Assembly (NCBI GenBank): GCA_963422375.2
Contig: OY729427.2
Location: 800,001 to 864,000, forward strand
Length of the DNA stretch: 64,000 nucleotides
From: Bryobacterales bacterium
Lineage (GTDB): Bacteria; Acidobacteriota; Terriglobia; Bryobacterales; UBA6623
Direction of reading: 5' to 3'
Of this stretch, positions 23,308-51,393 are shown piece after piece (position 1 is the stretch's first letter; each line of letters opens with the position of its first letter). The translations under genes and the position numbers were made by a program. The notes under the pieces are model-generated. The model saw nothing but the letters and a program-made list of their open reading frames with translations, was not told the DNA's origin and made no database searches.

Positions 23308-24546
23308 ATGACGGCTACGGTCACCTTCCAAGAGCGCGGGTACTGTCGCAAGCCGGGATACCCTCGCACCGATGCCGCGCTAGGCTGGTTGCGCTGGCTC
23401 TACAACACGACGCTAGCCGAGAGGAAGACGGCCAGGGAGGAGCGCTCCGAGTCGGTCACGTACCTCGACCGATGCGGAGGCCTGCCCCGGCTTCGCAAGG
23501 CGGAGCCCGAGCAGCTCGGCAGCCTCTACGGAAGAGTGCTCGAAGCCAAGCCGTCTCGCGTGGACATGGTGTTCGAGGCCTTCTTCCGCAGGGTCGAGGC
23601 CGGCGATCGGCCGGGCTATCCGCGCTTCGAGCCTGCGAGCCGCTTCCGCGCGATTGAGTGCTTGCGTCCTCGGAAGCTGCGGGCACGCGGCAACGGTCGC
23701 TACCTCCTGCGGATCATGTGTCTTCCGAGAGAAGCCGTCAAGCCGCGGCAGGAGCTTCCAGGTATCAAGCCGAAGTTCGTCCGCATCGCGCGCACGGACT
23801 GGGCCAGCAACCTGGAATTGGTGTTCGACGGCATCTGCAAGCAGCCGCTGGCTCCGAGCGAGTCGGCCGCGGCCATCGGCCTCGGCGTGACGGATCAACG
23901 GGCCACCGGCGACGGCGAGCGGCTCGAGGGAGTCGACGACTCGGCTCATCGGAAGACGGTGCGCAAGCGACAGCGGGCGGTCGCTCGCTGCAGGAAGGGC
24001 AGCCGGACTCGCAGGAACCGCGTGCGGTCCCCGGGTAAGGCGCACGGTATGCGGCATCTGTCGAAGCGAAATGCCTGCGATCGCACGTCCCCTCGCCTTG
24101 TCCGCCGGCACGGCACGCTGGTTGACGAGGACTTGCCGATCCACAGCATGCCGCGTTCCGCGAACGCCACGGCCGAGGCGCCCGGAACGAACGGCAGGCA
24201 GAAGGCTGGACAGAATCGCTCGCTTCCGCGCCAGAGCCGGGGATCGCCGCTGGAGCAGCTTGCAGACAAGCCAGAGTGGGCCGGTCGCAGGTTCGAGCGA
24301 GTCAATCCCGGCTATACGTCGCAGCGGTGCCATCGCTGCGGCGAGGATGAGACGCGCCATCGCCAAGGCAAGCCGTACGCGTCCAAGCGCTGCGGATTCT
24401 CCCGCGATGCGGACGTAAGCGTCGCGATCAGCGCCTTGCAGGCCGTGAACTCGCCCGCGGTAGCTTCCAACCGCGGCAATGGCCGCGGTGCTGCCGGAAT
24501 TCGCTTGAGTCGGCATCGAGCCTTGAGGCGTTCGGTATACCGGTAG
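23308..24546 (+). mobile_element. tnpB: IS200/IS605-family TnpB (no tnpA nearby); open ORF with mutated RuvC-I and Zn-finger
   Basis: LYNTTLAER, FEAFFRR...PGYPRF, AAIGLGV (in place of GIDLG), EDL, VNPGYTSQRCHRCG, RDAD; 412 codons with no stop. Confidence 0.85.
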
Positions 24547-24567
24547 AAGAAGTCGGAAGGCAATCCC

Positions 24568-25605
24568 ATGCCCGCGGTCCAAGCAGCGCTGCACCGAGCC
24601 GCCGACCGGCAGGATCTGCAGGAGAGGCAGGCCCATGCCGCGATGCTGTCGATCCTGCGGGGCGAGTCAACGCCCGTCCTGACGGCCGCCCTGCTGGCCG
24701 CCCTGCGCGCGAAGGGCGAGACGGCGGCCGAGTTGACGGGCTTCGCGCGAGCGATGCGCGAGAACGCGGTCAGGGTCCGGCCCCGCTCGACGCCGCCCGA
24801 GCGTCTCGTGGACACTTGCGGCACCGGCGGCGACGGCGGATCCACCTTCAACATCTCCACGGCGGCGGCGCTAGTGGCGGCCGGGGCGGGCCTGGCCGTG
24901 GCCAAGCACGGCAACCGGTCCGTGTCGAGCCGGTGCGGCTCGGCCGACGTGCTGGAAGCCCTCGGAGTCCGGGTCGGGCTCGGTGCCGAGCAGGTCGCTC
25001 GATCGATCGACGAGACGGGCATCGGCTTCCTCTTCGCGCCCGCGCTGCATCCGGCCATGCGCCACGCCGGGCCGGTGCGGCGGGAGCTGGGCATGAGGAC
25101 GGTGTTCAACCTGCTCGGTCCGCTGTGCAACCCGGCCGCAGCTGCGGTGCAGGTCGTCGGCGTCTACGAAGACCGGGCGGTGGCGCTGGTGGCCGAGGCG
25201 CTCGCCCGGCTCGGCGCGCGACGGGCCCTGGTCGTTCACGGGAGCGACGGCATGGACGAGATCACCCTGACGGGACCGACCCGCTTCGCCGAGGTCCGGG
25301 ACGGCCGCGTCCGGCACGGCAGCGTGGAGCCGGCCGACTTCGGTCTGCCGGCCGTCGGCGGCGGTTTCGAGGGGGGCGACGCGATGGCCAATGCGGCGAC
25401 GGTCCGCGCCGTGCTGGACGGCCGGCCGGGGCCCGCCAGGGATATCGTGGTCATGAATGCCGGAGCGGTGCTCGGCGCCGCCGGCGCGGCGGGAAGCTGG
25501 CGCGAGGGCGCGGAGCGCGCCGCGGCAGCCATCGACACCGGAGCCGCCGCCGCCAAGCTGGCCGAGCTGGCGGCGTTCTCCCAACGCCTCGCCGCGACGC
25601 CCTGA
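24568..25605 (+). CDS. trpD: Anthranilate phosphoribosyltransferase
   Basis: DTCGTGGDG, FNIST, KHGNRSVSSRCGSADVLE, RTVFNLLGPL, GMDEI. Confidence 0.97.
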   Translation: MPAVQAALHRAADRQDLQERQAHAAMLSILRGESTPVLTAALLAALRAKGETAAELTGFARAMRENAVRVRPRSTPPERLVDTCGTGGDGGSTFNISTAAALVAAGAGLAVAKHGNRSVSSRCGSADVLEALGVRVGLGAEQVARSIDETGIGFLFAPALHPAMRHAGPVRRELGMRTVFNLLGPLCNPAAAAVQVVGVYEDRAVALVAEALARLGARRALVVHGSDGMDEITLTGPTRFAEVRDGRVRHGSVEPADFGLPAVGGGFEGGDAMANAATVRAVLDGRPGPARDIVVMNAGAVLGAAGAAGSWREGAERAAAAIDTGAAAAKLAELAAFSQRLAATP

Positions 25606-25629
25606 TCCCCGACCGAGTCGGAGCTCGGG

Positions 25630-26652
25630 CTAGCGGCCCGCCCCGTCGGCCAGGCGGTCCTCGAGCTTCTCGATGTGCCGGGCAAGCGCCGCCGCGACCC
25701 GCGCGGGCATTCTCTCGAACCGGTCCTCGCCCCCTGCCCGCTTGCGCTCCACCTCGCGGAACGCCGCCAAGGCCGCCTGATCGTCCCCCGCGGCCTCGCT
25801 CATCGCAGCTGTCTCGAGCGCGAACGTGTACGCCCGCGGGAAGTCGTCCGCGAGCGAGCGAAACAGCGCCGCGGCCTCGGCCGGCCGCCGCTCGCGGCGA
25901 TGCAGTAGCGCGAGGAGGAGGCGCGCGTCGTCGCGGTTCTGCTGCCCCTCGCTCGCAACGCGCGCGATCATGCCGGCGCCGCGCTTGCGGTTGCCGCGAT
26001 AGCCGCTCAGCGCGATGACCGCGCGCGCCGCCCACGGAAGACTCCCGAGAATGTACTCGTCGACCCCGGCTACGAGCAGACCGTCCACGAATTCCGGGTA
26101 GAGGCTGCACACGCGGTAGCTCGCCGCCCTGGCCCGCCGGCCGCTTGCCAGCGCGGCAAGGTACGACTTGGCGACCAGGAACTCGAAGCTCGCCCGCAGC
26201 GCGAGGACCTGCGCGAGGACGTGCAGCGCCTCCCGGTCGTCCGGAACGGACTGCAGGCGGCGCTCGCAGGCCGCCCGAGCCCGCGCGAAGGCCTCGCGAA
26301 GGGACCGGTTGATCTGCGGGTCGCGCTTCGCCTTTGGGACAGAGTTGTAGGCTTCATCGCCGCGAAAGGCGCTCGTGCCGATCAGTCCGAGCCGGCCGAG
26401 CTCGTGCGATAGCAGGGCCTTGGCCAAGAGCATGCGGGCACGCACGTCCCGCGGGTCCTCCTCGACCAGCCGCTCGAACCAGCGGACCGCCTCGGCGTGC
26501 TCCCGGTTGAAGAAGTAGTCGTGGCCGGGGACGTAGCGGTCCGACGCCACTCCGGCTCGGACCCCGAGCAGCACCAAGGCCGCGAGGCATGCCAAGGACG
26601 CCCGCGGCAGGCACTCGCGCCTAGCAGAGTACAAGAACCTCCAGGATGGCAT
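25630..26652 (-). CDS. Secreted TPR-like helical-repeat protein; start uncertain
   Basis: Signal-like LACLAALVLLG; Ala-rich helical repeats; host codon usage. Confidence 0.65.
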   Translation of the reverse strand: MPSWRFLYSARRECLPRASLACLAALVLLGVRAGVASDRYVPGHDYFFNREHAEAVRWFERLVEEDPRDVRARMLLAKALLSHELGRLGLIGTSAFRGDEAYNSVPKAKRDPQINRSLREAFARARAACERRLQSVPDDREALHVLAQVLALRASFEFLVAKSYLAALASGRRARAASYRVCSLYPEFVDGLLVAGVDEYILGSLPWAARAVIALSGYRGNRKRGAGMIARVASEGQQNRDDARLLLALLHRRERRPAEAAALFRSLADDFPRAYTFALETAAMSEAAGDDQAALAAFREVERKRAGGEDRFERMPARVAAALARHIEKLEDRLADGAGR

Positions 26653-27316
26653 CCCTCTTCAGATAGAAATGCACGGCGCGCGCCTGAGGGAACAGGGTCT
26701 CGAGCTTGCGAGTGCTGAACTCCTGGGAGGGCCGGCGACGACCGACCTCGCGCAGAGAGAAGGTGCTCTCGGAGTGGATCGAACAATTCAAGGCCGGGAT
26801 CGGCTCCACGCTCGACTCGCCGTGAAACAGGCAGAAGATCATGCCGCTCGGGCGCAAGATCTTGGCGCAGTGGGCGATCGTCACCCTCATCGCCCCTTGA
26901 TCGAGGTGCTGCAGGACATCCCATGCGAGCACCGCATGGAAGCTGTTCGGAGCGAAGTCCAGATTCATCCGTACGATTCGGCGCGCCGCTTCCACGGAGA
27001 CCTGGCCGTTCTCGTCAGCGAGCTCGGCCTTTGCCCTGTCAAACGTGTGCAGCAAGCTGACAAAGTTGATCCGGTGGCCCTGGCCGCCCACGAACCACGC
27101 CGTCCCCTCCGACAGCATCCCCAAGTCGAGGACCTTGAGATCCTCTACGCCCTCGAGATGGTCGAAGAGGCACCGAAGGCCGTGGCTCTCTCGAATCTGG
27201 GGCGACCCTTCGGACGAAGGCCGCCACGCGCCAGAAGAGTCGGGACTGCGGCTCTCCAGCTCGGCCCGGACGCCGCCGTCCCGCTTTCGGGCACTTCTTG
27301 GACGCAGTTTCAGCAA
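26621..27316 (-). CDS. Class I SAM-dependent methyltransferase-like protein
   Basis: KVLDLG, SFHAVLAWDVLQHL, ILRPSGMI. Confidence 0.7.
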   Translation of the reverse strand: MLKLRPRSARKRDGGVRAELESRSPDSSGAWRPSSEGSPQIRESHGLRCLFDHLEGVEDLKVLDLGMLSEGTAWFVGGQGHRINFVSLLHTFDRAKAELADENGQVSVEAARRIVRMNLDFAPNSFHAVLAWDVLQHLDQGAMRVTIAHCAKILRPSGMIFCLFHGESSVEPIPALNCSIHSESTFSLREVGRRRPSQEFSTRKLETLFPQARAVHFYLKRDAILEVLVLC

Positions 27317-27504
27317 CGGAGTGCCTCCTTCGCTAGAACTCGCGCAGCAGGCAGCGCGAGGCGCTTCTCGAGAGCTCCCCCGACGCTCCGTCTCGAGCCC
27401 GGTCCCAGCGGCCTAGGCGCCCGGGAGACGCCGCGCCCGGGCGGGGCGCGAGGCCATCGGATCGCACGAACGCCTGCGGGCCAGCCACGTGTCCGGCCTC
27501 GGTC

Positions 27505-28101
27505 TCATGCCTTGGCAGGCCGGACGAGGGCGGGGCCCGACGGAGCGGGCTTGGCCGCCTTCGTGGCCGACGCGGCCGCAGGCGTCTCGGCACTCGCCGC
27601 GCGCGACACAACGGGGTCACCGTCGCGACCCTTGACCTCGCTAGTCCCGCAAAAGACGGCGCCGTCCTCGACGACGAGCCGCTTTGAGATCAGGTTGCCC
27701 TCCAAGCGCCCCTCCTTCTTGATCTCGATCCGTTCGTGAACGTTCACCTTGCCGTGAAGGGTGCCGCGCAGCAGGAGCGAACGCGCTTCAATCTCGGCAT
27801 GCACCTCGCCGTTCGTGCCGATCAGGAGGCGGTTCTTCGGGATGCTGATCTTGCCCTCGATCAGGCCGTGCACGTCGATATCCTCTTGGGAGTCGATAGT
27901 GCCCCGAAACTTGACCGTCTTCCCGATCACGGAGTTCTGCTGGGCCCTGGGCTCGGCGGTGCGTTCCGATCTCGGTTGCGCGACTGGGGCGTCGGCCTCC
28001 CTGGGCGGGGGCTGGGGCGTTACAGGCGCACGACGGGGCAGCGGATCCGCTTTCTCGGCGCCTGCGGACTGATCCGGGCCTCTTCGTCCCCACATACTCA
28101 T
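27505..28101 (-). CDS. Bactofilin (polymer-forming cytoskeletal protein)
   Basis: SVIGKTVKFRGTIDSQEDIDVHGLIEG...VEDGAVFCG domain with Pro/Ala-rich tails. Confidence 0.92.
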   Translation of the reverse strand: MSMWGRRGPDQSAGAEKADPLPRRAPVTPQPPPREADAPVAQPRSERTAEPRAQQNSVIGKTVKFRGTIDSQEDIDVHGLIEGKISIPKNRLLIGTNGEVHAEIEARSLLLRGTLHGKVNVHERIEIKKEGRLEGNLISKRLVVEDGAVFCGTSEVKGRDGDPVVSRAASAETPAAASATKAAKPAPSGPALVRPAKA

Positions 28102-28239
28102 GATTTCATCCTGTCCCTCTCTGCCGCGTTGCGACTCGCCAGAAACCAATCAGTATAGCCAGACACGAGCGCCGACGGAGTGTTTGACGGAACATCAATG
28201 GTAGGCTACGCTCGGAACTTCGGGGCCGCACTCCCTCCC

Positions 28240-29250
28240 ATGCATGCATTCGAACTGACACGGGCGCTGATCGACATCGAATCCGTCACCCCAAACGAGC
28301 GCGAAATCGGGGATTTCTTGTTCGAGCACCTGTATCCACTGGCAGAGCGGCATGGCGGGAAGATCGAGAGGCAGGAGGTCGAGCCGGGCCGCAACAACGT
28401 CTGGGCTCGCTGGGGCGAGCCGGAGGTGGTGTTCTCCACGCACATGGACACCGTGCCGCCGTTTATCCCGTCAAGGGAGGACGACGAGTTCATCTGGGGG
28501 CGCGGCGCCTGCGACACCCACGGCATTGCCGCTGCGATGATCAACGCCGTGGAATCGCTGCTCGAGGACGGCCTGCAAGGCCTCGGCATCCTGCTGGTCG
28601 TGGGCGAGGAAGTCGACGGGGCCGGCGCGCGGCACGCCAACTCGCGGCCGCCGCGGGCTAGGTACCTAATCAACGGCGAACCCACGGAGAACCTGCTGGC
28701 CCTCGCGTCCAAGGGCACGCTGGGCCTGCGGATCCGGGCCTCGGGGCGCGCGTGCCATTCGGCGTACCCCGAACTCGGCGTGTCCGCCACCGACATCCTG
28801 CTGGACAGGCTGAATCGCCTGCGGGCGATCGACTGGCCGTCCGACCCGCTGCTGGGGGAGACGACCCTAAACGTCGGCACGCTCGAGGCCGGGCCGGCGG
28901 CGAACATCGTCGCCGACTACGCCGTCGCGTCAGTCGTCATCCGAGTCGTGGCCGACCTAGCCGCCACCAAGGCGCTCGCTTTTTCCGCGCTCGACGGGGT
29001 GGACGTGGAGGTGTTCTCGTACACGCCCGCTCTCCGCCTCCACGCCCTGGAGGGTTTCGAGACGTCGATCGTCAAGTACACGACCGATATCCCGAAGCTG
29101 ACGAACTGGGGTCGGCCGCTGCTGGTCGGACCCGGATCGATTCACCACGCGCATACGGTCGACGAGCGGATTCCCAAGGCCCAAATCGTGGAGGCGATCG
29201 ACCTGTACAAGCGGCTCGCCCTCTCGCTGAAGGGGGCGGGAAGGGGCTAA
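28240..29250 (+). CDS. M20-family metallopeptidase (ArgE/DapE-like deacylase)
   Basis: STHMDTVPP, GRGACD, GEE, NGEPT, GPGSIHHAHTVDE. Confidence 0.9.
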   Translation: MHAFELTRALIDIESVTPNEREIGDFLFEHLYPLAERHGGKIERQEVEPGRNNVWARWGEPEVVFSTHMDTVPPFIPSREDDEFIWGRGACDTHGIAAAMINAVESLLEDGLQGLGILLVVGEEVDGAGARHANSRPPRARYLINGEPTENLLALASKGTLGLRIRASGRACHSAYPELGVSATDILLDRLNRLRAIDWPSDPLLGETTLNVGTLEAGPAANIVADYAVASVVIRVVADLAATKALAFSALDGVDVEVFSYTPALRLHALEGFETSIVKYTTDIPKLTNWGRPLLVGPGSIHHAHTVDERIPKAQIVEAIDLYKRLALSLKGAGRG

Positions 29251-29258
29251 TCGGCTCG

Positions 29259-30005
29259 ATGCGGCAGGGCTACCGCATCTTCGACACCCACACGCACCTC
29301 GGGCGGGCACGGCACTCGGGGCGCGTGGCCGCCGCCGCCGACCTGCTCCGCGCCATGGACGCGGCGGGCGTGGACCGGTCGCTGCTGATTCCCTTCCCGG
29401 TGGTCGACGACTGCCGCAGGGAGCACGACGAGATCGGAGCCGCGATTCGCGCTCATCCGGACCGATTCGCCGGGGCTGCCTGCATGGACCCCTTCGTGCC
29501 CGAAGCCGAGTTCCGGAGCGAAGTCCGGCGCTGCCGAGAGCGCCACGGCTTCCGGGCGCTGAAGTTCCAGCCGCAGTACCAAGGCCTGAACCCCCTGTCC
29601 GAGCGCAGCGGCTTCCTGTTCGAGACCGCGCTCGAGAACGAGCTCGCGCTGGTCTGCCACACGGGCGCGGGCGCTCCGTTCGCGCTCCCCTCGCTGTATA
29701 TCCACCCCGCCCGGCGGTTCCCGGATCTGCGTATCGTGCTGGGCCACGCCGGCGGAGGCATCTACGCTCTCGAAGCGGCGGTCGCCGCCTCGGTCTGCCC
29801 GAACATCTATGTCGAGCTCTCCACGCTCACTCCGCATGCCGTGCTCGAGATCATGCAGCACGTCCCGTCGGACCGACTGATGGCCGGGTCGGACCTGCCG
29901 GAAAGCGTGGAGACCGAGATCGGAAAGATCCTGACGCTGCCCATCGCGGCCGCCGAGAAGCGCGCGATCCTCTGGGAAACGCCGACGGAGGTCTTCGGGG
30001 AATGA
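29259..30005 (+). CDS. Amidohydrolase_2 family protein
   Basis: DTHTH, CHTG, VLGHAGG, GSDLP. Confidence 0.85.
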   Translation: MRQGYRIFDTHTHLGRARHSGRVAAAADLLRAMDAAGVDRSLLIPFPVVDDCRREHDEIGAAIRAHPDRFAGAACMDPFVPEAEFRSEVRRCRERHGFRALKFQPQYQGLNPLSERSGFLFETALENELALVCHTGAGAPFALPSLYIHPARRFPDLRIVLGHAGGGIYALEAAVAASVCPNIYVELSTLTPHAVLEIMQHVPSDRLMAGSDLPESVETEIGKILTLPIAAAEKRAILWETPTEVFGE

Positions 30006-30125
30006 CGGCGCCAGCGACGCGTCTCTCGACGGCCGGGCCTCTCGCCGCGCCCCGCGGGATTGATCCGGCGGATACCGTCTGCGATACTCGTATCTAACCG
30101 ACGGAGCGCGAATTCAAGGAACTGC

Positions 30126-30347
30126 ATGGCAAAAGAAGAGGGCATCGAGGTCACCGGCACGATAATCGAGCGGCATCCGGGCGGCATCTTCAGCGTGGAA
30201 CTCGATGACAAGCACAAGGTTCTCGCTCAGATCGCCGGCAAGCTGCGCAAGCACCGCATCCGGATCCTAACCGGGGACCGCGTCAACGTGGAGCTGTCCC
30301 CCTACGACCTCACCCGCGGCCGTATCGTCTACCGCTATCGAAGCTGA
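30126..30347 (+). CDS. infA: Translation initiation factor IF-1
   Basis: [11 protein letters not shown]...[26 protein letters not shown]. Confidence 0.97.
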
Positions 30348-30410
30348 GGCGGCACGGGTCCATCGGGTCCACGGGGGCCGGACGGCGCGGGCGCGATAGT
30401 CTGGACGCTT

Positions 30411-30896
30411 ATGAGGCTGTTCGTGCTGCGCCACGCCATCGCGGAGGAGCCTCGGGCGGGCAAGCCGGACTCTGCGAGGCAGCTTACGGAGCCCGGCAGA
30501 GCCAAGGCCCGGCGCATGCTAGCGCACGCGCGAAGCGTCGGCGTCCGTCCCGCATCCATTCTGTCGAGTCCGTACCGGCGTGCCGCGCAGACCGCCGAGA
30601 TCGCATGCGCGGAACTGCAGCACCCGCACCCTGCCATCGAGACGCGCTCCCTGCTCCCCTACGTCAGCCTGTTCGACCTCTGGGAGGAGATTCGCGCGCA
30701 GGCGGCCGCCGGAGACGTAATGGTCGTCGGCCACAATCCCCAGCTGAGTTCGCTGACCGCCGCCCTGCTCGGAGCCCGGTCGGACGCCCTCTGGCTGAAG
30801 AAATCCGGCCTCGTCGCGCTGGACCTGGGCGCAGCGGGCAGCAACCCGCGCGCCTCTCTCTTGTGGCTGCTCACACCCGGCTCGGTCGGTCGCTGA
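30411..30896 (+). CDS. sixA: Phosphohistidine phosphatase SixA
   Basis: LRHA, DSARQLT, SSPYRRAAQTA, VVGHNP. Confidence 0.9.
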   Translation: MRLFVLRHAIAEEPRAGKPDSARQLTEPGRAKARRMLAHARSVGVRPASILSSPYRRAAQTAEIACAELQHPHPAIETRSLLPYVSLFDLWEEIRAQAAAGDVMVVGHNPQLSSLTAALLGARSDALWLKKSGLVALDLGAAGSNPRASLLWLLTPGSVGR

Positions 30897-30920
30897 TCCG
30901 TCGCGCAGGCCTCGACCCCG

Positions 30921-31559
30921 ATGCGGGACCGTTTCGCGGAGCTCCACCTCCCGCTCGCTAGGTTCTTCCGCGGCCGCCGCCTGCGCCGCTTCGCGCGGGC
31001 GTTCGACGTCAGCGAGTCCACCACCGTGCTCGACCTAGGCGGGAGCGAGTACTACTGGGCGTGGGTCGCGCCCCTTCCCAAGGTCACCGTGGCGAACCTG
31101 GAAGCACGCGACATACGTCGGGAACGGCTGCCGTGGGTCCGCGCGGACGGGCGGCTGCTCCCGTTCGCGGACCGGGCGTTCGACATAGTGTTCTGCAACT
31201 CGGTGATAGAGCACCTGCCTGACGAGCGCAGCAGGAAGCTGCTGGCCGGGGAGATCGCGCGCGTCGGGCGGGGCTACTGCGTGCAGACGCCGAACCGCTG
31301 GTTCCCGGTCGAGCCCCACACTCTCACGCCCGGGTTCCAGTTCCTCCCCCGGGGCTGGCAGGCCGGCTTGGCGCGAAACTTCACCGTGTGGGGCTGGCTC
31401 CGGCGCCCGGACCGCGTCGAGGCGCGGGGATTCGTCGAGAGCACGAACCTGCTGTCCGCCAAGAAACTTGTCCGGCTATTCCCGGACGCCCGGATCGACC
31501 GGGAGCGCTTTCTCGGCCTCACCAAGTCGATAAGCGCGGTCCGCAGCCGACGCGACTAG
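30921..31559 (+). CDS. Class I SAM-dependent methyltransferase
   Basis: VLDLGG, ADGRLLPFADRAFDIVFCNSVIEH, QTPNRWFPVEPH. Confidence 0.88.
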   Translation: MRDRFAELHLPLARFFRGRRLRRFARAFDVSESTTVLDLGGSEYYWAWVAPLPKVTVANLEARDIRRERLPWVRADGRLLPFADRAFDIVFCNSVIEHLPDERSRKLLAGEIARVGRGYCVQTPNRWFPVEPHTLTPGFQFLPRGWQAGLARNFTVWGWLRRPDRVEARGFVESTNLLSAKKLVRLFPDARIDRERFLGLTKSISAVRSRRD

Positions 31560-31958
31560 AATCCGGATCGGTAGCTCTCCGAGGGAAGCGCACGGCGGAC
31601 GACCTAAGATTCTGAAGCGCCGGATCGCCGTGCTCGGCGACCGCCCGCAACAAGCCGAGAATCCTGGCGTGAGCTCCCTCTCGTCCGGCGCGTGGATATC
31701 CGCGCTCGCACGAATTGAATTCGGCGTCCGGGGACTGGCTCCTGTCCGGAACCGAAGCGGGAGGCGCAGGAGACCCGGCGCTCTCTCGACGCCATACCGA
31801 GCGCAATCCGAGCCTCGCACCCGAGCCGCTCCGACTCGTCAAACAGGCCATGGCCGGAGCGTCCGGAGAAGCGCGCCGGCCATTGGCGGCAGCAAGCAAT
31901 GCCGGGCTTGGCGAACCCCTGCGACGGACTGAGTACACGAGCGGGTCACCCTTGTAAA

Positions 31959-33407
31959 GGGAATTATTTATCTGAGTGCCGAGGCAGCGGATTTGGCAAG
32001 TTATCAATCCATAAATTAATTTGACATTTCTCTTGGATATCTGTTGAAATTCGGTGGAAGTTCTTGATAGAATGGTTCCGATATAGGAGGTCATAGTTGA
32101 AGAATTTGAAGAAGAACTGTCCCGGAAATTGGTTTCGTAAAGGCATCACGTTGATTGAAGTGATCGCCATGTTCCCCGATGACGAATCCGCGGAAAAGTG
32201 GTTCGTCTCCGTGCGCTGGCCGGACCGTCCGGCATGCCCCCGCTGCCGCGGCTCCAGCGTGCAGTCCGGCGCGGCCCACCCTTCGATGCCGTACCGTTGC
32301 CGCGGTTGCGGCAAGCGCTTTTCCGTGCGCACCGGCAGCGTGACGGCCGACACCAAGCTCGGCCACCGCGTCCGGGCCATCGCCATGTTTCTGCTGACCA
32401 CCGGCCTCAAGGGCGTCTCCAGCATGAAGCTGCACCGCGACCCGGGCATCAGCCGGAAGTCGGCCCGGCACCTGGCGCACCGCATCCGCGCGTGCCGGGA
32501 GCGGGACCGGGACCTGTTCGTCGGCCCGGTGGAAGTGGACGAGACGTACGTCGGCGGCAAGGAGCGCAACAAGCACGAGAGCAAGAAGGCCCGCGCCGGG
32601 CGCGGGCCGGCCGGCAAGACCCCCGTGGCGGGCGCGCGGGACCGCGCCACGAACGAAGTGGCCGCCCGGCCGCTGCCGGGCACGACCGAGGGCGACCTGC
32701 AGGGCTTCGCGCGCGGCCGGGTCGCGCCGGGCGCGCAGGTCCGCTCCGACGAGGCGGCGGCCTGCGCCGGCATGGCGGAGTTCGCGCACGAGGGCGTCAA
32801 GCACTCCGGCGGCGAGTACGTGCGCGGGGCGACGCATGCGAACGGCATCGAGTCGTTCCGGTCCCTGTTCAAGCGCGGCCTCTACGGAACCTATCAGCGG
32901 ATGAGCGTCCAACATTCGGGCCGCTACCTCACGGAGTTCGCGGGACGGCGCAACGCCCGCAACTGCGACACGGCGGAACGGATGCGGCGCATGGCGCGGG
33001 GCCCGGTCGGCCGGACGCTGACCTACCGGCAACTGGTCGGCAAGGCCGCGGTCGCGGCCCGAGCACGGCCTGGCCGGTCCGCTGCGGCCTCTCTTCACGC
33101 TCGGTGCGAAGGGCGCTCCGGATCCGGAATCCCGCGCCGCGACCGGTGTCCAGTCCGGACAATTCATAGATGCAGCCGCCTTGGAAGGGGAGCCTCTCCA
33201 CGGCAATCCGGGTTCCACCGGGGCGCCCGAGGCGGCCTCTCCAGTCCGTGCGCCGCGAAATCCGCTGGCCGCCGCGATTCAGATACGAACCGACCTTTCG
33301 GTGCCCACCTCGGCTGCACACGAAAGACCCGAGCTAGACGCCGACGTCCCCAATCAGAGCAGTTCTAGCCGGATATGGCGTCGTCGGCACTCAGATATAT
33401 AATTCCC
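31959..33407 (+). mobile_element. Complete IS1595-family element (ISNwi1-like ends); transposase ORF 32097-33368
   Basis: 24-bp TIRs GGGAATTATTTATCTGAGTGCCGA (31959-31982) and 33384-33407, one mismatch. 8-bp TSD CTTGTAAA at 31951-31958 and 33408-33415. Zn ribbon plus VEVDETY, SDE, NGIES motifs. Confidence 0.95.
32044..32090 (+). promoter_or_regulatory. Sigma70-type promoter and SD of the IS1595 transposase
   Basis: TTGAAA-18nt-TAGAAT (TGn extended -10); AGGAGG 32085-32090; TTG start 32097. Confidence 0.6.
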
Positions 33408-33652: not shown

Positions 33653-35086
33653 ATGCTTCGACCCCTCGCACTGGCGACCTCGCTCCTGGTGGCAGCCCTG
33701 CCCGGCCTGTGCTCGCCCAACATCGTCTTCATGATGGCCGACGACCTCGGGTGGAACGACGTCGGCTACCACGGAAGCGACATCCGCACCCCGAACATCG
33801 ACTCAATCGCCGCGCGCGGCATGCAGCTCGACAGGTACTACGCGACGCCCCTCTGCAGTCCCACTCGGGCCGGCTTCCTGACTGGGAGGATTCCCCTCCG
33901 TCTCGGAGTGGACCGCCCCATCGAAATGCAAGGCGGCCTGCCGACCCGCGAGCGGCTGCTGCCGGAAGTGCTGCGGGAGGCCGGCTACCGGACCGCGATC
34001 GCGGGCAAGTGGCATCTCGGCTTGCACCATGTCCGCTACCATCCGCATAACCGGGGGTTCGAGAGCGCCTACGGGCACCTTGGCCCGGCAGTGGACTACT
34101 GGACCCACATCTTCGAGGGCGGTCTCGACTGGCACCGAGACGGCAAGGCCCTCGACGAGGACGGATACTCGACGGAGCTGATCGGCAAGGAAGCCGAGCG
34201 CGTGATCCGGGGTCGCGGCGACGGGAACCCGTTCTTCCTGTACGTCGCCTTCAATGCGCCCCACACCCCGCTGCAGGCACCCGAAGCCGCCGTTGAGCGC
34301 TACGGTGCGCTCCGCAATCCGAATCGACGCGTCTACGCAGCCGTGGTCAGCGAAATGGACCGGGCCGTGGGCGGAATCATCGAAGCGCTGGACGAGGAGG
34401 GCCTGCTCCCAAGCACCTTGGTCGTGTTTGCCAGCGACAACGGAGGAGCCGTTCGCATGGGCGCGGAGAACGCACCCCTCCGAGACGGAAAGGGGGGAGC
34501 CTTCGAGGGCGGGATTCGCGTGCCCGCGCTGGTCTGGATGCCGGACAGAATCGAAGGCGGCGGGACGTTTTCGCAGATGATGACGGTCACTGACTGGCTG
34601 CCGACTCTCGCAGCGGCGGCCGGAATCGAAGGCGGCGCGGACCAAGCGACCGACGGGATCGACATGTGGCCGGCACTCGCGGAAGGCGCGACGGCCGAGC
34701 GAACGGAGCCCTACGTTGTAGGAGTGTTCGGCAATTTCGCCGTGATCGACGGGGACTGGAAGTACGTCAAGGCCGTGCCCCGACGAGGCACCGAGGCGGC
34801 GGAGTATCTCTTCCGGCTCGACCTTGATCCGGAAGAATCCAACGACCTTGCGGCGTCCAGCCCGCAGAGGCTGGAAGCGATGCGGGCGCAGCTGGAAGCC
34901 TTCCCTCGAGCGCAAACCGTGTCTCCTGACGTGACCGGGCCCGGGGGCGGGGCCGGCGGCCCGGGGAGGCGGGGCCGGGCCAAGAGAAAGGCGGCCGGCG
35001 GTCCTCCGATCACGCGGGCGGGCGCGCTGGCGGGCTGGAAGGAGATCAACCGGCGGCCGTGGGTGGAGCTGGCGAGCAGGGACTAG
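33653..35086 (+). CDS. Arylsulfatase (Cys-type, ArsB-like), secreted
   Basis: PNIVFMMADDLGW, CSPTR formylglycine motif, GKWHLG, SDNGG, EGGIRVP; alternative ATG at 33644. Confidence 0.93.
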   Translation: MLRPLALATSLLVAALPGLCSPNIVFMMADDLGWNDVGYHGSDIRTPNIDSIAARGMQLDRYYATPLCSPTRAGFLTGRIPLRLGVDRPIEMQGGLPTRERLLPEVLREAGYRTAIAGKWHLGLHHVRYHPHNRGFESAYGHLGPAVDYWTHIFEGGLDWHRDGKALDEDGYSTELIGKEAERVIRGRGDGNPFFLYVAFNAPHTPLQAPEAAVERYGALRNPNRRVYAAVVSEMDRAVGGIIEALDEEGLLPSTLVVFASDNGGAVRMGAENAPLRDGKGGAFEGGIRVPALVWMPDRIEGGGTFSQMMTVTDWLPTLAAAAGIEGGADQATDGIDMWPALAEGATAERTEPYVVGVFGNFAVIDGDWKYVKAVPRRGTEAAEYLFRLDLDPEESNDLAASSPQRLEAMRAQLEAFPRAQTVSPDVTGPGGGAGGPGRRGRAKRKAAGGPPITRAGALAGWKEINRRPWVELASRD

Positions 35087-35884
35087 CTCGCCCGGCCGAC
35101 GCCGCTTTCCGCGAGCAGCGACGGCAGGTCGCGAACGGAGTCCAGCACCCAGTGCGGGCGGTCTGGGGAGTCGAGATCGGCCGACCGGAACTTCCCCGTG
35201 CGCACGAGCGCGGAGCGAAGGCCTGCCCGCTGCGTGCCCAACGCGTCGGCTCGCAGGTCGTCGCCGACCATCAGCAGATCGCCGGGGGCGACGCCCAGAA
35301 TCTGCGACGCCTGCACGAAGAAATCCCTGGCCGGCTTGCCCAGCACTACCGCACGGCGGCCCGCGGCGCACTCCAAGGCAGCCACGAACGGCGCGACGTC
35401 CGGGTTAGCACTGTCAGGCGACTGCCAGTACCGGGTCATCCCCAGCGCCACCAGCTCGCGCCGCGGGCATTCGTGCAGAAGGCGGAAGGCGCGGTTGAGC
35501 GTCGCGTAGTTCCAGGCCGCGCCGAGATCCCCGATGACCACGTAGGCCAAGTCCGCCGGGGCGGTGGCATCAACGGTCTCCAGTCCGCGGAATTCCTCGC
35601 GCGTCGCATCCGGCACAAACAGCGCGGCGAGGCCGGCTCCGCGGCTCCGGATTCGAGCCGCCGCGGCGACCGGCGGCGTCAGCAAGTCTTCCGTCCCGGC
35701 AGGAATGCCGAACCGGGCCAGCTTCGCAACCAGCGCCCGCCTCGGTCGGCGAGGTCGCGTTCGTGACGAATAGCGACGGGATGCCGGCCTCTCGCACCGC
35801 TGCGACGGCGTCGGCGGCACCCGCAATCGGCTCCTCGCCGTTGTAGATCATGCCGTCCAAGTCGATCAGAACGCCGCGGAGCAT
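35083..35884 (-). pseudogene. HAD-IIA hydrolase with a 1-nt frameshift
   Basis: DLDG, FVTN in one frame; GKP, MVGDD, RTGKF in another. Removing one base at about 35749 (ACC TCG [C] CGA CCG) joins them. Confidence 0.85.
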
Positions 35885-35899: not shown

Positions 35900-36725
35900 G
35901 GCCGCGTCAACAGTCGTTGCTGAGCTTGCGGACCGGCCGCGCGGACTTGCGATGGCAGGCGTTGCGCTTGGACACGCGCCGCTTACGGCGCACCTCGCCG
36001 CGCGCCCGCACCCGCTTCTTGCGCGTCCTGCCGCCCTTCTTCGGGCGGTCGACGGCACGACTGCCCTCGCGGGTCGCCTTGCGATGCTGCGTATCGCCAA
36101 CGCGTCGGATACGCTCGCCATCGCTGGTTGCGACTTGATCCGCGACGCGCGGGTCGATGCCCGCGACGGACGCGGACGGCGGCAGAGGCAGCTTGCGGAC
36201 GCCGTGGAGCACCATGTCCACGTTGATCCCTGCGTCCGTGCGGGTGATGCGGACGAGCTGCGGCTCGAGGCTCGGCAAGCCGCGCCGCGGCTTGATCTTG
36301 ATCTGAGGCAGGCCCTCGATGCGCGGGACGTACCAGCCGCCGCCGCGCCTCCAGAGCCGTGGCCGGCGCTAGCACTCGATCGTGCGGAACCTGCTAGCGG
36401 GCTTGCACCGCGGGTAGCCCGGCTGCTCGCCGGCCCTGCACCGCCGGAAGAACGCCTTGAATGCCTAGTCCACCCGCGAGAGCGTGGCATCGATCACCTT
36501 CGCGTAGTCACCGCCAAGCATCGCCGGCTCCGCCTTGCGGAGTTCCGGCAGCCGGCTGCGCTGGTCGAAGTACGAGACGTTGCGCTTGGCTTAGTCCCAG
36601 GCCTTCTCGCGCTCCTCCAGCGCCTTGGCGCAAAGCCAGCAGAGCCAGCCCAGCACGGCGCCGATCCGGGCAAAGCAGGATTCCGGCAGTGCCCGCGCTC
36701 TTGGCAGGTGACTGTAGCGACCGCT
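35900..36725 (-). pseudogene. tnpB: TnpB remnant, paralogous to the 23308 copy, 3'-truncated
   Basis: Matches the first copy (ATVTCQERG, AFFRR...PGYPR, GIDPRVADQVATSDGER); stops and frameshifts; ends before the Zn-finger. Confidence 0.85.
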
Positions 36726-36828: not shown

Positions 36829-37960
36829 CTTGATTGCCCAGCCGAGGGCGCACGGCCGGGGAGGTGGCAGGTGAGCTGGACGGCCACCCCGCGGGGGCCG
36901 TGGCATCATCCTTGCGACTGGCCGTCATCCGCGGTGGGCGCCTTGGCCTGGCAGTGCCCGCTCCGCTCCGGTTGCCATTTTATTCGAAATTGATTGGTTG
37001 TTTCGAGCAATATGCTAGATGTCTTCGGGCTTCTGGGTCGGAGATCATGAAAATGCTAGGCGAGATCTATTATGCGATTAGTGTTAGTAACGTAGGATAG
37101 AGCTAAGTAACAATTCGTACTTAAGGCTCTTGAAACTCTCCATGTCGAAGAACAAGATCTAGTTCCAGAAGGGTCTCAGCTTGGGCGACTTCCTCGCCGA
37201 CTTCGGGAGCGAGGAGCGGTGCGAGCAGGCCCTGTTCGCCATCCGCCGGCCCGAGGGCCGCGCCCGGTGGCAGCGCAACGGCTGCAAGCGCCAGGTCTCG
37301 CTGCTGGCGGGCGCGATCTTCCAGAGCACCAAGCTGCCGCCGACCACCTGGTTCCTCGCCATGTATCTGCTCTCGGAGACCGGGAACGGCATCTCGGCGC
37401 TCGAACCGGGGCTCCTGCGGGCGTGAACAGCAGCACGGACTGGAGGCTCCAGCACAAGCTCCTGCCGGATCGCGAGGGCGATCGCCTCTTGAAGGGCTTC
37501 GTGCATGTCGGCGGCGAGCGCGGTCGCGGGGCGGAAGGCAAGACCCGGCTGGTGGCGGCGGAGCAGGTGACGGACCAGGACGAGCGGCAGCCGGTGGTGC
37601 TCAAGCCGAGCGTGCTGGAGGGCTTCCGCAAGGAGGAGCTGGAGCGCTGGGCGCGGGAGCACCTGGCGCCGGGCACGACGGTGCAGTCGGACGGGCCGGG
37701 CTGCTTCGCGGGCGTCGAAGCGGCCGGCTGCGAGCACGAGGCCACGGTCACGGACGGGGGCAAGCGCGACTGCGCGCTGCCGCAGCTGCCGTGGGTAAAC
37801 ACGGTGCCGGGCAACGTCAAGCGTTCCATTGACTGGACCTACCACGCGGTCGGGCCGAAGTACGCGGGGCGCTACCTGGCGGACTTCCTGCACCGCCTCA
37901 ACCGGCGCGACGACCTGAAGGCGATCGCGGGCCGGCTGCTGCGGGCGGCCGCCGATGCCG
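36829..37960 (+). pseudogene. IS1595-family (IS1595 subgroup) transposase remnant
   Basis: ATG 37142 MSKNKI*FQKGLSLGDF; GAIFQSTKLPPTTWFLAMYLL; WVNTVPGNVKRSI..TYHA; RYLADF..RLNRR. Putative left end CTTGATTGCCCA at 36829; no right end seen. Confidence 0.8.
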
Positions 37961-45079: not shown

Positions 45080-45091
45080 CCGGCCGCGCGC

Positions 45092-45877: not shown

Positions 45878-45921
45878 CCGGCCCAGTGTACAGCGGCGCT
45901 TCCGGCAGCGATCCGACACGG

Positions 45922-46619: not shown

Positions 46620-48856
46620 CGGTGTTTTTCCCACGGAGCCCTCGACAAACGGCCGCCGAGCTGCCTTCAACGGGTCATGCCCCGGAACCGCATTCTCGAA
46701 ACGCTGTCGGGCCCGGAGGGTCTCCTCCGCCTGCGAGCGCTGCTGGACGCGGAGACCTTCCCCCATCGCACCGCGCTCGCCGCGTACGTGTGCGCCAACT
46801 TCCGCTTCCACGACGCTCGCGGAAACTGCCAAGCGGTCACCTGCCTGAAGGCCTTGCGGACCCTCCACGCCCGCAACAGCATCGCTCTCCCGCCGCCCGT
46901 CCGCCACGGCGGGCACGGCCGCCCCGTCGAGGCCCCGCGGTCCGTGCCGGCGCGCGCCGGCGCCGTCGAGGACCTGCGCCTCGAACTCGTCGCCGACGAC
47001 CGCAGCCGCCGGCTCCGGACCGAACTGATCGCCCGCGAGCATCCCCGAGGCGCCGCCTGCCACATCGGTCCCCAGCTGCGCTACCTGCCGCTCTCGCGGC
47101 ACGGCATCCTCGCCGCCTCCGCCCTGGCTCTCGCCGACCGCTGGATCGGCTGGGACGCCGAGCGCTGTCGCAACCGGCCTTGCGCGCAGTGCCGCAACCT
47201 CGCCTCCAAGGCCCTCGCTCCGGGCCTGCGCCGCCTCCCCGCCGACCTCCGACGGCGCTACGGCTGCGAACCCCTCCTCGCGGAGACCTTCGTCGACCGC
47301 CGGCGCCGGCCTCAAGGCCGCCAACTGAATCCACATCGGCCGCACCGCAGGCCGCGGGCGCTGCGCCCCGACCGGCGCGACCGTGCCCATCAAGGCCGTC
47401 TTCCTGTATCCCCTGCGGCACGACTGGCGCCGCCAGCCGGGCGTGCCCGCGCCCCCCGTGCCGGACCTCGCCGCCGGGCTGCACCGCGACAGCTGGGCCC
47501 GGCCCGAGTTCGGCAGTGCTCGACTTTGAGATGTACGCCGGAGCCGCCGCCCGGTGCAATGCTCGGCCGCCATGATCGACGCGCCGCGGGCCTCGTTCGT
47601 CTCCGCAGCCTAGTCCGACCGCGCCCTGATGAAGGCCTGATACCGCATGATCGACCAGCCGGCCGAGGCCGTCGTGCTGTGCGTCCAGGACAGAAGCGAC
47701 CTCAAGTTCGCCGAGCGACCGGACTGCGTCGGCCCGGGGCTGATCGGCAGGAACAACCGTTCCAAGGGCACCCTCGGCCTGCACATGCATTCGACGCCGG
47801 CCGTCAACGGCGACGGCATCCCGCTGGGCGTGCCGCCTATCCAGTTCGAGGCCCGGGACGGCCGGGCCGGGAAGCACAAGCCGGCCGAGCTGCGCAAGAC
47901 GCAGCGCTGGGTGCGAGAGCTGCGGGACACGGCCGAGCTGGCCGGGCGGCTGCGGGGGACACGGCCGGTCGCGGTCATGGACCGCGAGGCGGACGTGTTC
48001 GAGCTGATCGCCGCGCGCCGGCGGCTGGATGGGATCGACCTGCCGGTGCGGGCCAGGCACAACCGCAGTCTCGGCCAGGACCGGCCGAAGCTCTTCGACC
48101 GCCCAGGCGCGCCCGGCGCTACGCGTCCCGCGCAGCTCGGCCCGGCGCGGCACGCGGCGGCAGGCGGCGAGCGAGTTGCGCCCGGCGCACGGCCAGAGGT
48201 GGTGCTGCGCCGGCAGACGGTCCCGCTGCCGGCGCCGGCCGAGGGACCCGAGCGCGGGAGCGAGCCGATTCGCCTGAACATGGTGCACGTGCGGGAAGAC
48301 GCGGCCCCGGACGGCGCCGAGCCGCTGGAATGGTTCCTGCTGACGAGCTTGCCGATGCGGTCGCGGGCGGACGCGGAGCGCATCCTCACCTGGTATCGCC
48401 TGCGCTGGCGCATCGAGGACTGGCACCGGGTGCTCAAGTCCGGCTGCCGGGCGGAACACCTCGGCCATCGCCGCGGCGAGCGGATCGAGCGGGCGGTCAC
48501 GATCAAGGCGGCGATCGCGTGGCGCCTGACCGTGATGACGCTGCCGGGCCGGGACACGCCCGAACTGCCGCCGCGCGATCAATTCTCCGACGCCGAGCTG
48601 CGGGCGCCGGGCGACTTCGCCAAGGCTCGCCAGTTGCCGGCACCCGACAACCTAGGGCGCGCAGCGCTCACCACGGCGATGCTCGGCGGCTATCTCAACC
48701 GCAAGCACAATCCCCCGCCCGGGCGCGAGGTTCTCTGGGAGGGCTACACGCGACTCGCTACGGCCACGCAGACGTACGAGCGGCTGATCGACCTAGATAA
48801 AGCCAGTAACTTGTACCGAAACCTGCCCTTAACCAAGACTCATGGGAAAAAGGCAG
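46620..48856 (+). mobile_element. Degenerate IS4-family (IS50/Tn5-like) element with N-terminal DUF4338-like domain
   Basis: VQD, MDREAD, WYRLRWRIEDWHRVLKSGC (YREK), LGGYLNRK..PPG..VLWEG. IS50-like ends CGGTGTTTTTCCCAC (46620) and ACTCATGGGAAAAAGGCAG (48838-48856). Frameshifts around 47300-47650. Confidence 0.85.
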
Positions 48857-49033
48857 CCCGCGGCCGCAAGCCTGCCTACAGGCGACGCAAGCAGCGACCG
48901 TCGAGGGCGGTCTCGTCGCTCCCTTGAAGACGACCCAGTCGCCAGCGATTCTAAGTTTGGGCATCTTAGGACTTCCAGAGTGTCTGACAAGTGTGTCGAA
49001 GGCAGATTGGCGCAGCCTGGCACTTGACTCTTC

Positions 49034-49820
49034 CTAGTGCTGTGTCCCGCAAATACGCGCAGAGAGACGTTCGGGCTCGTTGAAGATCGACTCGGCCGTC
49101 GCGACCCGGATGAGGGGGAAGCGGGGGGGCATAGTATTGCGCGATGAAGGCCTCGATCATCTAGACTCGTTGAGCGACGCTGCCGAACGAGCCTCGCTTG
49201 ATGGCACGCTGGCTGACGAGACCGAACCGGCATTCCACCTAGTGGAGCCACGAGGCGGATGTCGACGTGAAGTGAAGATGGTAGCGCGGTCTCTCGGCGA
49301 GCCGCGCTCGGACCCTCGGATGCTTGCGGGTCGCGTAGTTGTCCAGGACGGGATGAATTTCGAGTGCGGGCGATGTCTCGCGGTCAGCGAGCCGCGGGAA
49401 GGCGGGAAACTCCCGATTGCGCCGGCGCCGGGAGCATTTGCCGAGCATCTTACCGGCGGCCGCGTCGAGAGCGGCGAAGAGCGTCGCGGTTCCGTGCCGG
49501 ATGCAGTCATGGTCATGGCCTTCGGCATAGCCCGGTCCCATCGGCAGCGCGGGCCGAGGGTGATGGAGCGCCTGTATCCGGCGCTTCTCATCGACGCGCA
49601 ACGCCATGGCGCTGTCCGGGGGATTGAGACAAGGGCCAGTCACGTCGCGCACCTTATTGATGGAGAACGCCACCCTGCGCGCAGGCCGCCGCGATGCGTG
49701 CCCGCTGGACCGGACCATGGGGCATCGAAGTGGACTGCGAGAGGGCAGTCAGCTGTGCGTGCTGCTCATCTGTGAGCACCACTGGTGGAGTTGGCGTCCG
49801 CGCGGGACCGTGCGGGATGA
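49034..49820 (-). pseudogene. IS630-family transposase remnant nested in the ISNCY element
   Basis: VVLTDEQ..., VDEK, RHGT.TLFAALD, LDNYATRKHP, HFT.TSASWL; internal deletion and stops; end TAGTGCTGTGTCCC at 49035. Confidence 0.88.
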
Positions 49821-49944
49821 CTGGAAGTGTCGGCGGTGGCGACGGCCATGCGGCGTAGGCGCGCGAGCGGGGCAGAGAGGGGTCCGGCCGCGCTCGGCAG
49901 GCGCGCCAAGGCCGAGGCAGCACAAGCTGCTGGAAAAGCGGGGG

Positions 49945-50075
49945 TTACGGCCCTGTTGTGGGTTGGGCGGGCGATGCTTGCGCGCCTGCCTGGTGCCGGA
50001 TCTCGTAGTTCCAGCGCGCGATGTCCGTCCCCTTGACGAGGTTGAGATGGTTCATCTGCCGGTCGCCGAGAGTCG
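49945..50075 (-). pseudogene. C-terminal fragment resembling an ISAzo13-family transposase
   Basis: GDRQMNHLNL.....ARWNYEIR resembles the conserved ISAzo13 C-terminus (..WNYTI.P). Confidence 0.5.
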
Positions 50076-51393
50076 CATCTCCTGCGACAACCGGATCCGC
50101 AACTTGCTCGACGGCGTCGAGCCGGCCGCATTCGACCCGCTGTTCCGACTGTGCCTCGAGACCGTGGGCGCGCTCGAGCCCTTCCAGCGCCTCGACGAGC
50201 GCCTGCCGGTGGCTCTGGAGGGCATCCGGTTCCACTGCTCGGACACGTCGCATTGCCCGCGGTGCTCGGTGCGCCACGCCGGGAGCGAGCGCCGGCCGCA
50301 TCCCTCTCACCATGGTCGCGGCGACCGTGGTGGCCGACGGCCACGCCACCGTCCTGCCGCCGATGCCCGAGTTCGCACGCCCGCAACAGGACGCGGCCGC
50401 GACCCGGGCCGACCTGAGCGAGACTAAGCGCAAGCAGGACTGCGCGCGCAACGCCGCAAAGCGCTGGATTCCCGCTCATGGCGACTGGCTGCAGGCCTGC
50501 CGCCCCGTCCTAGCGGGCGACGATCTGTACTGCTGCCAGCCACTCTGCGAGGCCGCCGAGGCGGCCGGGATGGACTACATCCTGGCATGCAAGCCCGGAT
50601 CCCGGATCCCACTAGCGCTTGTACGAGGTGCTGGAGAGCCGGCAGGCGAGCGGCGCAGTGCAATAGACCGGCTGGCTGCCGCGGCGCGGGCAGCGCACTT
50701 GGATCGATTACGCCGCGAAGCGCGGCGGCAAGCGCACCTGCGCCAACTGCTTCTTGACCACTCTCCGGGTGACCGCGGACAACGCGGAGCGGATCGCGCG
50801 GGACGGACGGGCGCGCTGAAAGATCGAGAACGAGGGGTTCAACTGCCTGGCGCGGGACGGCTGCAACTGCAAGCGCAAGTTCGGGCACGGCAAGGCCGCG
50901 CCGACCAATGTGCTGGCCGCGCTGAACATGTTCGCCTTCATGCTCCATGCCGTGCCGGCAGTGCCGACGCACGCGGGTCACGCGCCGCGACTTTTTCGAG
51001 GAGCTGAAGGTCGCGCTGCGCTGGTGTCCGCTTCCCGGACTGGCCGACTCTGCGGGCGACGGTGCCCGACGGAGGCGCTTCGCCGGACTGCCAGCCGGCC
51101 CCGGCCTAGCCTCCGCGCAGCTTCGTGCCAACAGCGTCCGGCGAGCGGCCGACCGAGGCACCCGGCTACCGCCGGAGTGCGTCGGGCCGCGAGTACACCG
51201 CCGAGGCCGCGCCCCAGCCATACCAGCTATCCGACGCTCCCGCGGGGCGGCCTCAGCAGCTCGACCGCTCAGTCGACTCGTTCAACTCATCCTCCTACTA
51301 CGACATTCGCCACCATCCTAATGGCCAAATTTAAAATCGCTGACCCGGTCGCAGGACCGGTCGACGAGCGACCAACCGGGCCCGCTGGCCCGC

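Follow-up and report, generated by a model that had tools for sequence, protein, structure and literature searches.

Spread of G:C alleles at short sequence motifs among decayed insertion sequence copies in a Bryobacterales genome

Introduction

Whether GC-biased gene conversion or selection holds the GC content of bacterial genomes above their mutational equilibrium is a long-standing question that is difficult to test, as both look alike in functional genes. GC-biased conversion in bacteria has been described as a fixation bias towards G:C that is tied to recombination, can fix damaging alleles and leaves rare alleles balanced but common ones skewed (main text of Lassalle et al. 2015, PMC4450053). 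A second related system is very short patch (VSP) repair. Vsr enzymes perform one-way T:G repair, are in some cases mutagenic and in some cases solitary, according to three studies (PMC2715241, PMC12907096, PMC6116569). For a gonococcal Vsr, cleavage of CTGG/CCGG mismatches is reported (PMC6116569). Here, we analyze a stretch of 64,000 nucleotides from a Bryobacterales bacterium (the window; C1:800001-864000), which carries a decayed insertion sequence (IS) of the IS1595 family together with several other dead elements.

An earlier note on this window, written from its letters, had proposed that unselected DNA of this lineage decays mostly by A:T>G:C transitions, that is, by a reversed mutation spectrum caused by repair loss, GC-biased conversion or an adenine-damaging activity. 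The genome comprises 6.0 Mb with 67% GC in three contigs. In a self-comparison, repeats at a depth of at least 10x cover ∼0.5 Mb of it, including two IS1595 families of ∼80 copies each, and the presence of these families makes a direct counting of that claim possible.

Results

Decayed elements of the window carry an excess of A:T>G:C changes

The first IS1595 family (F1) is represented by 76 copies including the window element, the second (F2) by 87 copies, and their transposases share ∼30% protein identity. Both families were aligned and polarized by outgroup transposases. This outgroup polarization is needed because a derived allele that has become common is read as the consensus state; counting against the copy consensus hid the effect. 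Copies below the BLAST identity or coverage cut-offs, the outgroup P0030 and codon changes of several steps were omitted, and length windows retained 90 of 120 outgroup proteins for IS630 and 110 of 120 for F2. Counts below are changes per opportunities, with A:T>G:C given before G:C>A:T.

All 13 motif strings that we searched from the earlier note were found at the elements it had named. For IS1595, the ancestral residues that it had assumed (W, L, Q, W, W) show 96-100% conservation across 96 outgroup transposases, whereas the window copy has CGG or CCG codons at these positions. Against the outgroup profile, this copy shows 13/112 vs 0/155 changes. The excess that had been proposed for the other elements was likewise present in IS630 (17/105 vs 6/124, p=0.007), in IS4 (7/114 vs 3/179, p=0.05, with five of the seven being L>P at CTGG) and in TnpB (17/110 vs 11/179, p=0.013, based on 26 distant congener proteins that are only ∼40% identical). 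The predicted stop loss of IS1595 was confirmed: TGA is retained in 46 of the 76 copies and replaced by CGA in 29, among them the window element (Table 1). Dead elements with open frames are indeed frequent, as 51/76 F1 and 50/87 F2 copies contain neither a stop nor a deletion. A family member in a near-ancestral state, encoded on a different contig, shows W, L, Q, W, W and Q at the affected sites, which supports the polarity.

New changes are balanced, shared alleles are not

New mutations in unselected DNA are roughly balanced between the two directions. Private changes in the F1 copies amount to 73 A:T>G:C and 170 G:C>A:T, or 0.0022 and 0.0024 per site. For conserved residues of both families, the polarized singletons were 29/277 vs 38/361. 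The normalized single-copy ratio is therefore 0.99, a balanced spectrum of the kind that the earlier note itself had named as speaking against its reading. Nor is decay mostly A:T>G:C elsewhere, since 11 repeat families contain 286 vs 705 private transitions (per-site ratios 0.42-1.30). Bacterial mutation is usually assumed to be AT-biased; the singletons are less AT-biased than that, but not reversed.

Alleles present in at least five copies of F1 and F2, in contrast, comprise 34 A:T>G:C vs 1 G:C>A:T (p=1.8e-8), and each family is significant by itself (p=3e-5 and p=3e-7). The same skew is found for transversions in at least five copies, with 18 A:T>C:G vs 2 G:C>T:A (p=6e-4), and alleles towards A/T (G:C>A:T, G:C>T:A) reach high frequency less often than GC-neutral ones do (p=5e-4). 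The IS1595 families are thus subject to a G/C-ward fixation bias. A Poisson random field fit gave a B of ∼12 (support 6-20) at a transition mutation ratio of 0.96. The nonsynonymous to synonymous count of singletons was 135/69 in both families. Even the least damaged copies carry three (F1) or five (F2) changes at residues at least 90% conserved in the outgroups, some of them family-wide, and stops occur in 11/76 F1 and 6/87 F2 copies. An effect of copy age was rejected, as the load of hot alleles does not correlate with the number of private changes (rho -0.08).

The spread alleles follow a sequence motif

Written for the strand carrying the T, common alleles were found at 14/19 CTGG and 5/5 GTAGG sites, and at 25/47 T-R-G sites as compared with 9/230 sites elsewhere. 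All seven CTGGG sites are affected. Both strands take part (18 T>C and 16 A>G), and outside of T-R-G sites a bias of 9 vs 1 remains (p=0.005). The response differs from site to site: 4/19 CTGG sites are unchanged in every copy, and the derived allele at CTGGC sites is present in 0 to 73 copies. Singletons occur at equal rates at other TG sites (10/87) and at TC/TT sites (13/125). In addition, T>G changes prefer a preceding T (14/64 vs 4/231, F1 and F2 combined).

This T>G-after-T class (K>Q, Q>P, M>L and similar) lies beyond T:G repair. Several F>L alleles (TTC>TTG) are also common in F2, and 20/76 F1 copies carry a synonymous CTG>CTA change in a CCTGG site. Templating by quasi-palindromes or direct repeats was rejected for lack of enrichment (p=0.16 and 0.86), and a preference for TC>TG among C/G polymorphisms was not significant (p=0.11). 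CGG recoding or RNA editing is incompatible with L>P and Y>C changes and with the involvement of both strands.

The motif bears on whether selection, either for a higher GC content of the elements or for an inactive transposase, could produce the skew. It would leave a frequency signature identical to that of biased conversion, going by the text of two studies (PMC4450053, PMC6867656), and the host could benefit from dead transposases. However, stop codons would be equally inactivating and remain rare, and a strict nucleotide motif in two families of ∼30% identity points to an enzyme rather than to protein fitness. We therefore consider selection improbable.

Rough simulations, with parameter sets picked by hand, were compared with the distribution over sites. 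Hot mutation alone left no empty sites and biased conversion alone too many, whereas a strong conversion bias combined with fivefold raised mutation gave both empty and swept sites in a U shape. As regards a process resembling repeat-induced point mutation (RIP), singletons were not raised one way; a modest motif-specific rise in mutation fits best in these hand-set simulations.

IS copies exchange short patches

Linkage disequilibrium (r2) drops to near independence beyond 30-60 bp in F1 subfamily 2 and in F2, and all four haplotypes are present in 71% of the pairs of F2 sites that lie 4-10 bp apart (four-gamete test). Among the 12 F1 pairs of highest similarity, 245 differences concern family-common alleles but only 66 concern rare ones, with 56 of the common ones being C/G. 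Within a sister trio, defined by three rare alleles in common, each copy retains the ancestral state in at least one position at which its two sisters are derived, and adjacent double changes occur. Recurrent point mutation is a poor account of this trio and short-patch exchange a good one. These fine-scale mosaics indicate that gene conversion occurs. F2 copies are not more alike when they lie closer together in the genome, and in F1 similarity shows a weak negative correlation with distance. Young intact IS families of congeners (IS4 in G046, IS1595 in G008 and G015) also fail four-gamete tests (0.3-0.7), and exchange among IS copies may be common in the genus.

The mosaicism rests on the assembly, as the IS1595 interior in the window is spanned by no listed run contig. 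Site independence and the several CCTGG sites resemble methylation-linked calling errors, so that modification-dependent base-calling errors or mis-polished repeats have to be considered. Only 91% of sampled words from window positions 26000-33600 were present, and a raw Illumina run gave seven reads. Three public runs belonging to two studies supply long contigs, which match the HAD region with 0 and the IS630 region with 0-1 differences, although these contigs may include the source data and their library type is unrecorded. The same alleles also recur in new combinations on proteins from other contigs, one of which is nearly ancestral, and only five W>R changes were found in 90,693 core codons. 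An assembly artefact is therefore very improbable.

Repair genes are intact and include a solitary vsr

An excess of A:T>G:C changes is established for strains defective in mismatch repair, and loss of this repair, now or in the past, had been one of the explanations offered. Decayed founders would then have been amplified in trans later on and recombined without bias. The biased alleles are in fact the shared, older ones. Moreover, among 84 published bacterial spectra, C>T leads in 69 and T>C in 15 (PMC10625568). In this genome, however, mutS and mutL are both intact and conserved (mutS, 860 aa, has only four novel residues among 403 conserved sites), present-day singletons are balanced, and the HAD gene is unbiased. 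Furthermore, under the ratio of 3.35 found for IS630, 13 common G:C>A:T alleles would be expected, but one was seen (p=3e-5). Taken together, repair loss is unlikely to account for the pattern.

The genes mutY and recA are intact as well, and nth, rdgB and two genes of the UDG superfamily (one of family 4, one for a protein resembling Thermus 2d3y) have open frames. Neither nucS nor endonuclease V was found in the genome (96% complete), and its MutT-like matches were below the cut-off.

A vsr gene was identified (Table 1), whose product aligns with E. coli Vsr at the catalytic positions. It is located among housekeeping genes, one of which, encoding a nucleoside phosphorylase, also neighbors the gene in 3/8 congener loci. 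Homologs with 74-82% identity and a matching neighborhood are present in G005, G002 and G044. With two methylases of this genome as queries, no match was obtained within 18 kb around vsr or in 7/8 congener loci (∼3 kb); C5 methylases do exist in the genome, unlinked to vsr. A Dcm-type C[T]WGG specificity of Vsr action is not seen in the core-gene and pentamer data.

Of all pentamers in the genome, CCWGG is the most depleted (0.67), and CTAGG is enriched (1.27); unrepaired 5-methylcytosine deamination at a Dcm-type site leaves such a pattern. GTGCAC occurs at 0.19 of expectation. Across 408 core genes of this genome and G003, third-position T/C usage by 3′ context mirrors A/G usage (TCC 0.35, GGR 0.35), which suggests that strand-symmetric processes shape synonymous usage, with a possible contamination by antisense open reading frames.

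Host genes and congeners

The earlier note had extended its claim to host pseudogenes, citing the frameshifted HAD gene. This extension is unsupported on the few data at hand: HAD shows 1/114 vs 4/187 changes and no bias (n=5 changes), only 1/12 of its CTGG sites is changed, and the cited ALECAAG string also occurs in 2/12 congener orthologs. A search for further host pseudogenes by means of 1.48 Mb of G003 was uninformative, as 800 open reading frames yielded 408 intact and 30 flagged genes (many of the latter N-terminal artefacts) without any excess relative to the intact genes.

Under equal scoring, IS copies of congeners show no excess, neither in IS4 (4/2671 vs 11/4157) nor in TnpB (12/3713 vs 20/5815), and pooled congener IS matches (35/5421 vs 50/7885) are mostly intact. 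The excess in the window is therefore not an artefact of scoring conserved residues. The IS4 family of G046 (36/40 copies kept) is young, with 0/32 TGG/TAG sites changed and a singleton ratio of 0.42. In G012, 20/305 vs 12/398 changes were counted (p=0.03, distant outgroup). IS remnants of G045 decay towards A/T (4/585 vs 29/785); this is the smallest genus genome listed (4.4 Mb) and has the weakest mutS DNA match.

Other features of the window and the genome

The features discussed are listed in Table 1. A BLASTN search of the genome with the IS630 remnant gave no second match of at least 80 bp. A miniature inverted-repeat transposable element of 259 bp and 49% GC, located at window positions 9467-9725, is present in 63 copies, the private transitions of which are AT-biased (20 vs 35 at equal opportunity). 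A region of more than 30 kb occurs in triplicate at 96-100% identity (C1 ends, C2:1307817-1350163, C3 ends), joins contig ends and contains a C5 methyltransferase match of equal score in all three copies; it may represent a multi-copy prophage or an assembly break. As a source for a mutation spectrum, it was discarded (36/4594 vs 44/13151), as its changes are noisy, include many transversions and are under selection.

Table 1. Coordinates of the features discussed (window positions unless a contig is named)
Feature	Position	Strand	Remarks
TnpB (IS605-type) remnant	23263..24546	+	open frame of 427 aa; PF07282, weak PF01385
IS1595 copy, family F1	31956..33407	+	PF12762, PF12760; one of 76 near-full copies
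IS1595 transposase frame with read-through	32097-33368	+	
W>R codon CGG at CTGG site	32373..32375	+	in 65/76 copies
L>P, Q>R and W>R codons	32442..32468	+	in 40/76, 65/76 and 17/76 copies; all CTGG>CCGG, on either strand
W>R codon in IESF motif	32859..32861	+	in 28/76 copies
Former stop TGA, now CGA	33060..33062	+	CGA in 29/76 copies; read-through of ∼100 extra codons
HAD hydrolase, host gene, frameshifted, single-copy	35083..35884	-	two tblastn pieces joining near 35749; no paralog
Second TnpB remnant, with stops	35925..36713	-	7/56 vs 6/111
IS1595 remnant, frameshifted	37142..37950	+	PF12762; no paralog of at least 80% identity
IS4-superfamily (DDE_Tnp_1) remnant, low copy number	47647..48927	+	PF01609
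IS630 remnant, internal deletion	49116..49806	-	single copy at DNA level
Repeat family F3, decayed copy	50063..51345	+	28 longer copies aligned
vsr	C2:2578398-2578835 (L086:8399-8836)		145 aa; TIGR00632 154 bits (cut-off 97.85); PDB 1cw0 E=1e-29

Discussion

The feature described for this window is real, but it is misframed as a reversed mutation spectrum. Of the causes that had been offered, conversion is favored and repair loss is not, and an adenine-damaging activity would not explain the T>G transversions and the shared C/G polymorphisms. We propose, at a probability of roughly 0.55, GC-favoring short-patch repair during recombination between IS copies, together with some raised mutation at the motifs. 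High-copy IS families that are old and relaxed would swap very short patches between copies; the mosaicism is visible in the assembled copies, and ectopic conversion of the RecA type would be its cause. Mismatches in the hybrid DNA would then be resolved preferentially to G:C by heteroduplex repair, most strongly where T stands in CTGG, GTAGG or another T-R-G site, with T>G after T as a second component. MutY takes A out of A:G and A:C mismatches and would supply the transversion arm. MutY and a T:G nicking enzyme of the Vsr type would be the likely agents. The same repair probably also makes T>C mutation somewhat more frequent at the motifs. Acting across ∼80 copies, the process would bring W>R, L>P, Q>R and Y>C changes and stop read-through to high frequency, with nonsense alleles staying rare. 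This would explain why no full copy fits the conserved profile and most frames are open.

Several observations weigh against this proposal. The single-copy IS630 shows a 3.35-fold bias without a DNA paralog, and the lone IS1595 remnant is biased (10/91 vs 3/113, scored with the F2 profile at ∼50% identity) without a close present-day donor; both would require former copies, allelic conversion or a true mutation bias. Core genes (408) show extra TpG>CpG relative to G003, with odds ratios of 0.28-0.43 vs 0.57 (one outgroup, unpolarized), and the GC content at third codon positions of mutS (0.92) is the highest among 30 genus genomes. Part of the push therefore appears to be genome-wide, and a weaker component of this kind, mutational or by allelic conversion, is likely. 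Core genes are also enriched for T at C[T]AGG (odds ratio 1.79) and C[T]TGG (1.25), which conflicts with a classical Dcm-type Vsr, since such an enzyme would remove T there. TpG depletion in these genes is general, and no CTGG-specific depletion was detected. Vsr is present in 30/31 genus genomes, yet the sampled congener IS copies are mostly intact and unbiased, and the only genome of the 31 without a Vsr match, G045, decays in the ordinary direction, which favors the proposal, but is a single divergent one. A simulation with uniform bias did not reproduce the bimodal spectrum, so that B is only an average, and founder differences may be among the high-frequency GC-neutral alleles. Finally, the odd-one-out common alleles of the sister trio are 7 towards G/C and 14 towards A/T, a comparison that is unrooted and of little power.

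Some of these points would suit genome-wide mutation hotspots, i.e. T>C at TpG, strongest at CTGG and GTAGG, caused for instance by a Vsr or a glycosylase that takes the correct T from replication mismatches, with unbiased conversion merely shuffling the alleles. The changes of the single-copy IS630 are concentrated in TG/TAG contexts (13/42 vs 4/69 elsewhere), core genes have their extra TpG>CpG, and every CTGGG and GTAGG site is affected. Stimulation of CTAGG>CCAGG mutation by Vsr is moreover reported in E. coli (text of PMC2715241), and, as said, no endonuclease V was found in the genome. But hotspots alone leave no place in simulations for the untouched CTGG sites, would not predict singleton rates that are alike at other TG and TC/TT sites, and explain neither why common G:C>A:T alleles are so few in comparison with neutral ones nor the 18:2 transversions; the HAD gene with its CTGG sites almost all unchanged also argues against them. 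We regard this explanation as possible but rather unlikely. About as tentative, and a little more doubtful, is an extension of the conversion proposal in which the solitary, genus-conserved Vsr-type activity is a homology-dependent brake on high-copy transposons, a reverse of RIP, that also raises genome GC. An equally speculative element of that idea is that near one-way CTGG/GTAGG repair upon recombination would spread loss-of-function codons until none of the copies is left intact.

Some 160 dead copies within a single genome act as an internal population, in which a balanced input is set against a 34:1 fixation skew that runs counter to protein function, and the nucleotide motif of the skew names a testable enzyme. 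For annotation, this is a warning that dead transposases may retain long open frames. It also suggests how IS families of high copy number may bring about their own extinction.

Among known systems, fungal RIP is likewise a repeat-linked, directional and context-dependent ruin of transposons; RIP, however, makes new C>T changes and stops, whereas here existing alleles spread to G:C and frames stay open. Cordaux reportedly described in 2009, to go by the title, gene conversion among non-functional Wolbachia IS copies, with a GC or motif bias not evident from that title. The TpG/CpA>CpG bias driven by TDG in mammalian CpG islands shares a mismatch-specific enzyme that makes CpG from TpG, but, as described in the text of that study, TDG is a eukaryotic glycosylase acting on damaged pairs (PMC4041421). 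VSP repair, as known from E. coli Dcm/Vsr, the gonococcal V.NgoAXIII and V.NgoAXIV and Caulobacter VsrA (PMC2715241, PMC6116569, PMC12907096), resembles the present case in its one-way T:G to C:G direction, its context dependence and its short patches. Unlike there, vsr lacks an adjoining methylase here, the motif would be S-T-R-G-G instead of C-T-W-G-G, CCWGG decay products remain, and T>G transversions require another enzyme. In the open-access literature (most subscription papers and supplements lying outside), we found no description of a motif-specific GC drive among bacterial IS copies. A close relative is the GC-biased conversion of Lassalle et al. (PMC4450053), with which the IS1595 families share skewed common alleles over balanced rare ones, evident recombination and a bias that covers transversions too. 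That work concerns allelic exchange in core genes, and its text contains no mention of VSP, MutY, insertion sequences or paralogs; the bias in the present case, by contrast, is found between paralogous IS copies of a single genome and depends sharply on the motif. The parts, namely bacterial GC-biased conversion, VSP repair and, going by the title of Cordaux, conversion among dead IS copies, are already known, and the present case would be a variant of biased conversion.

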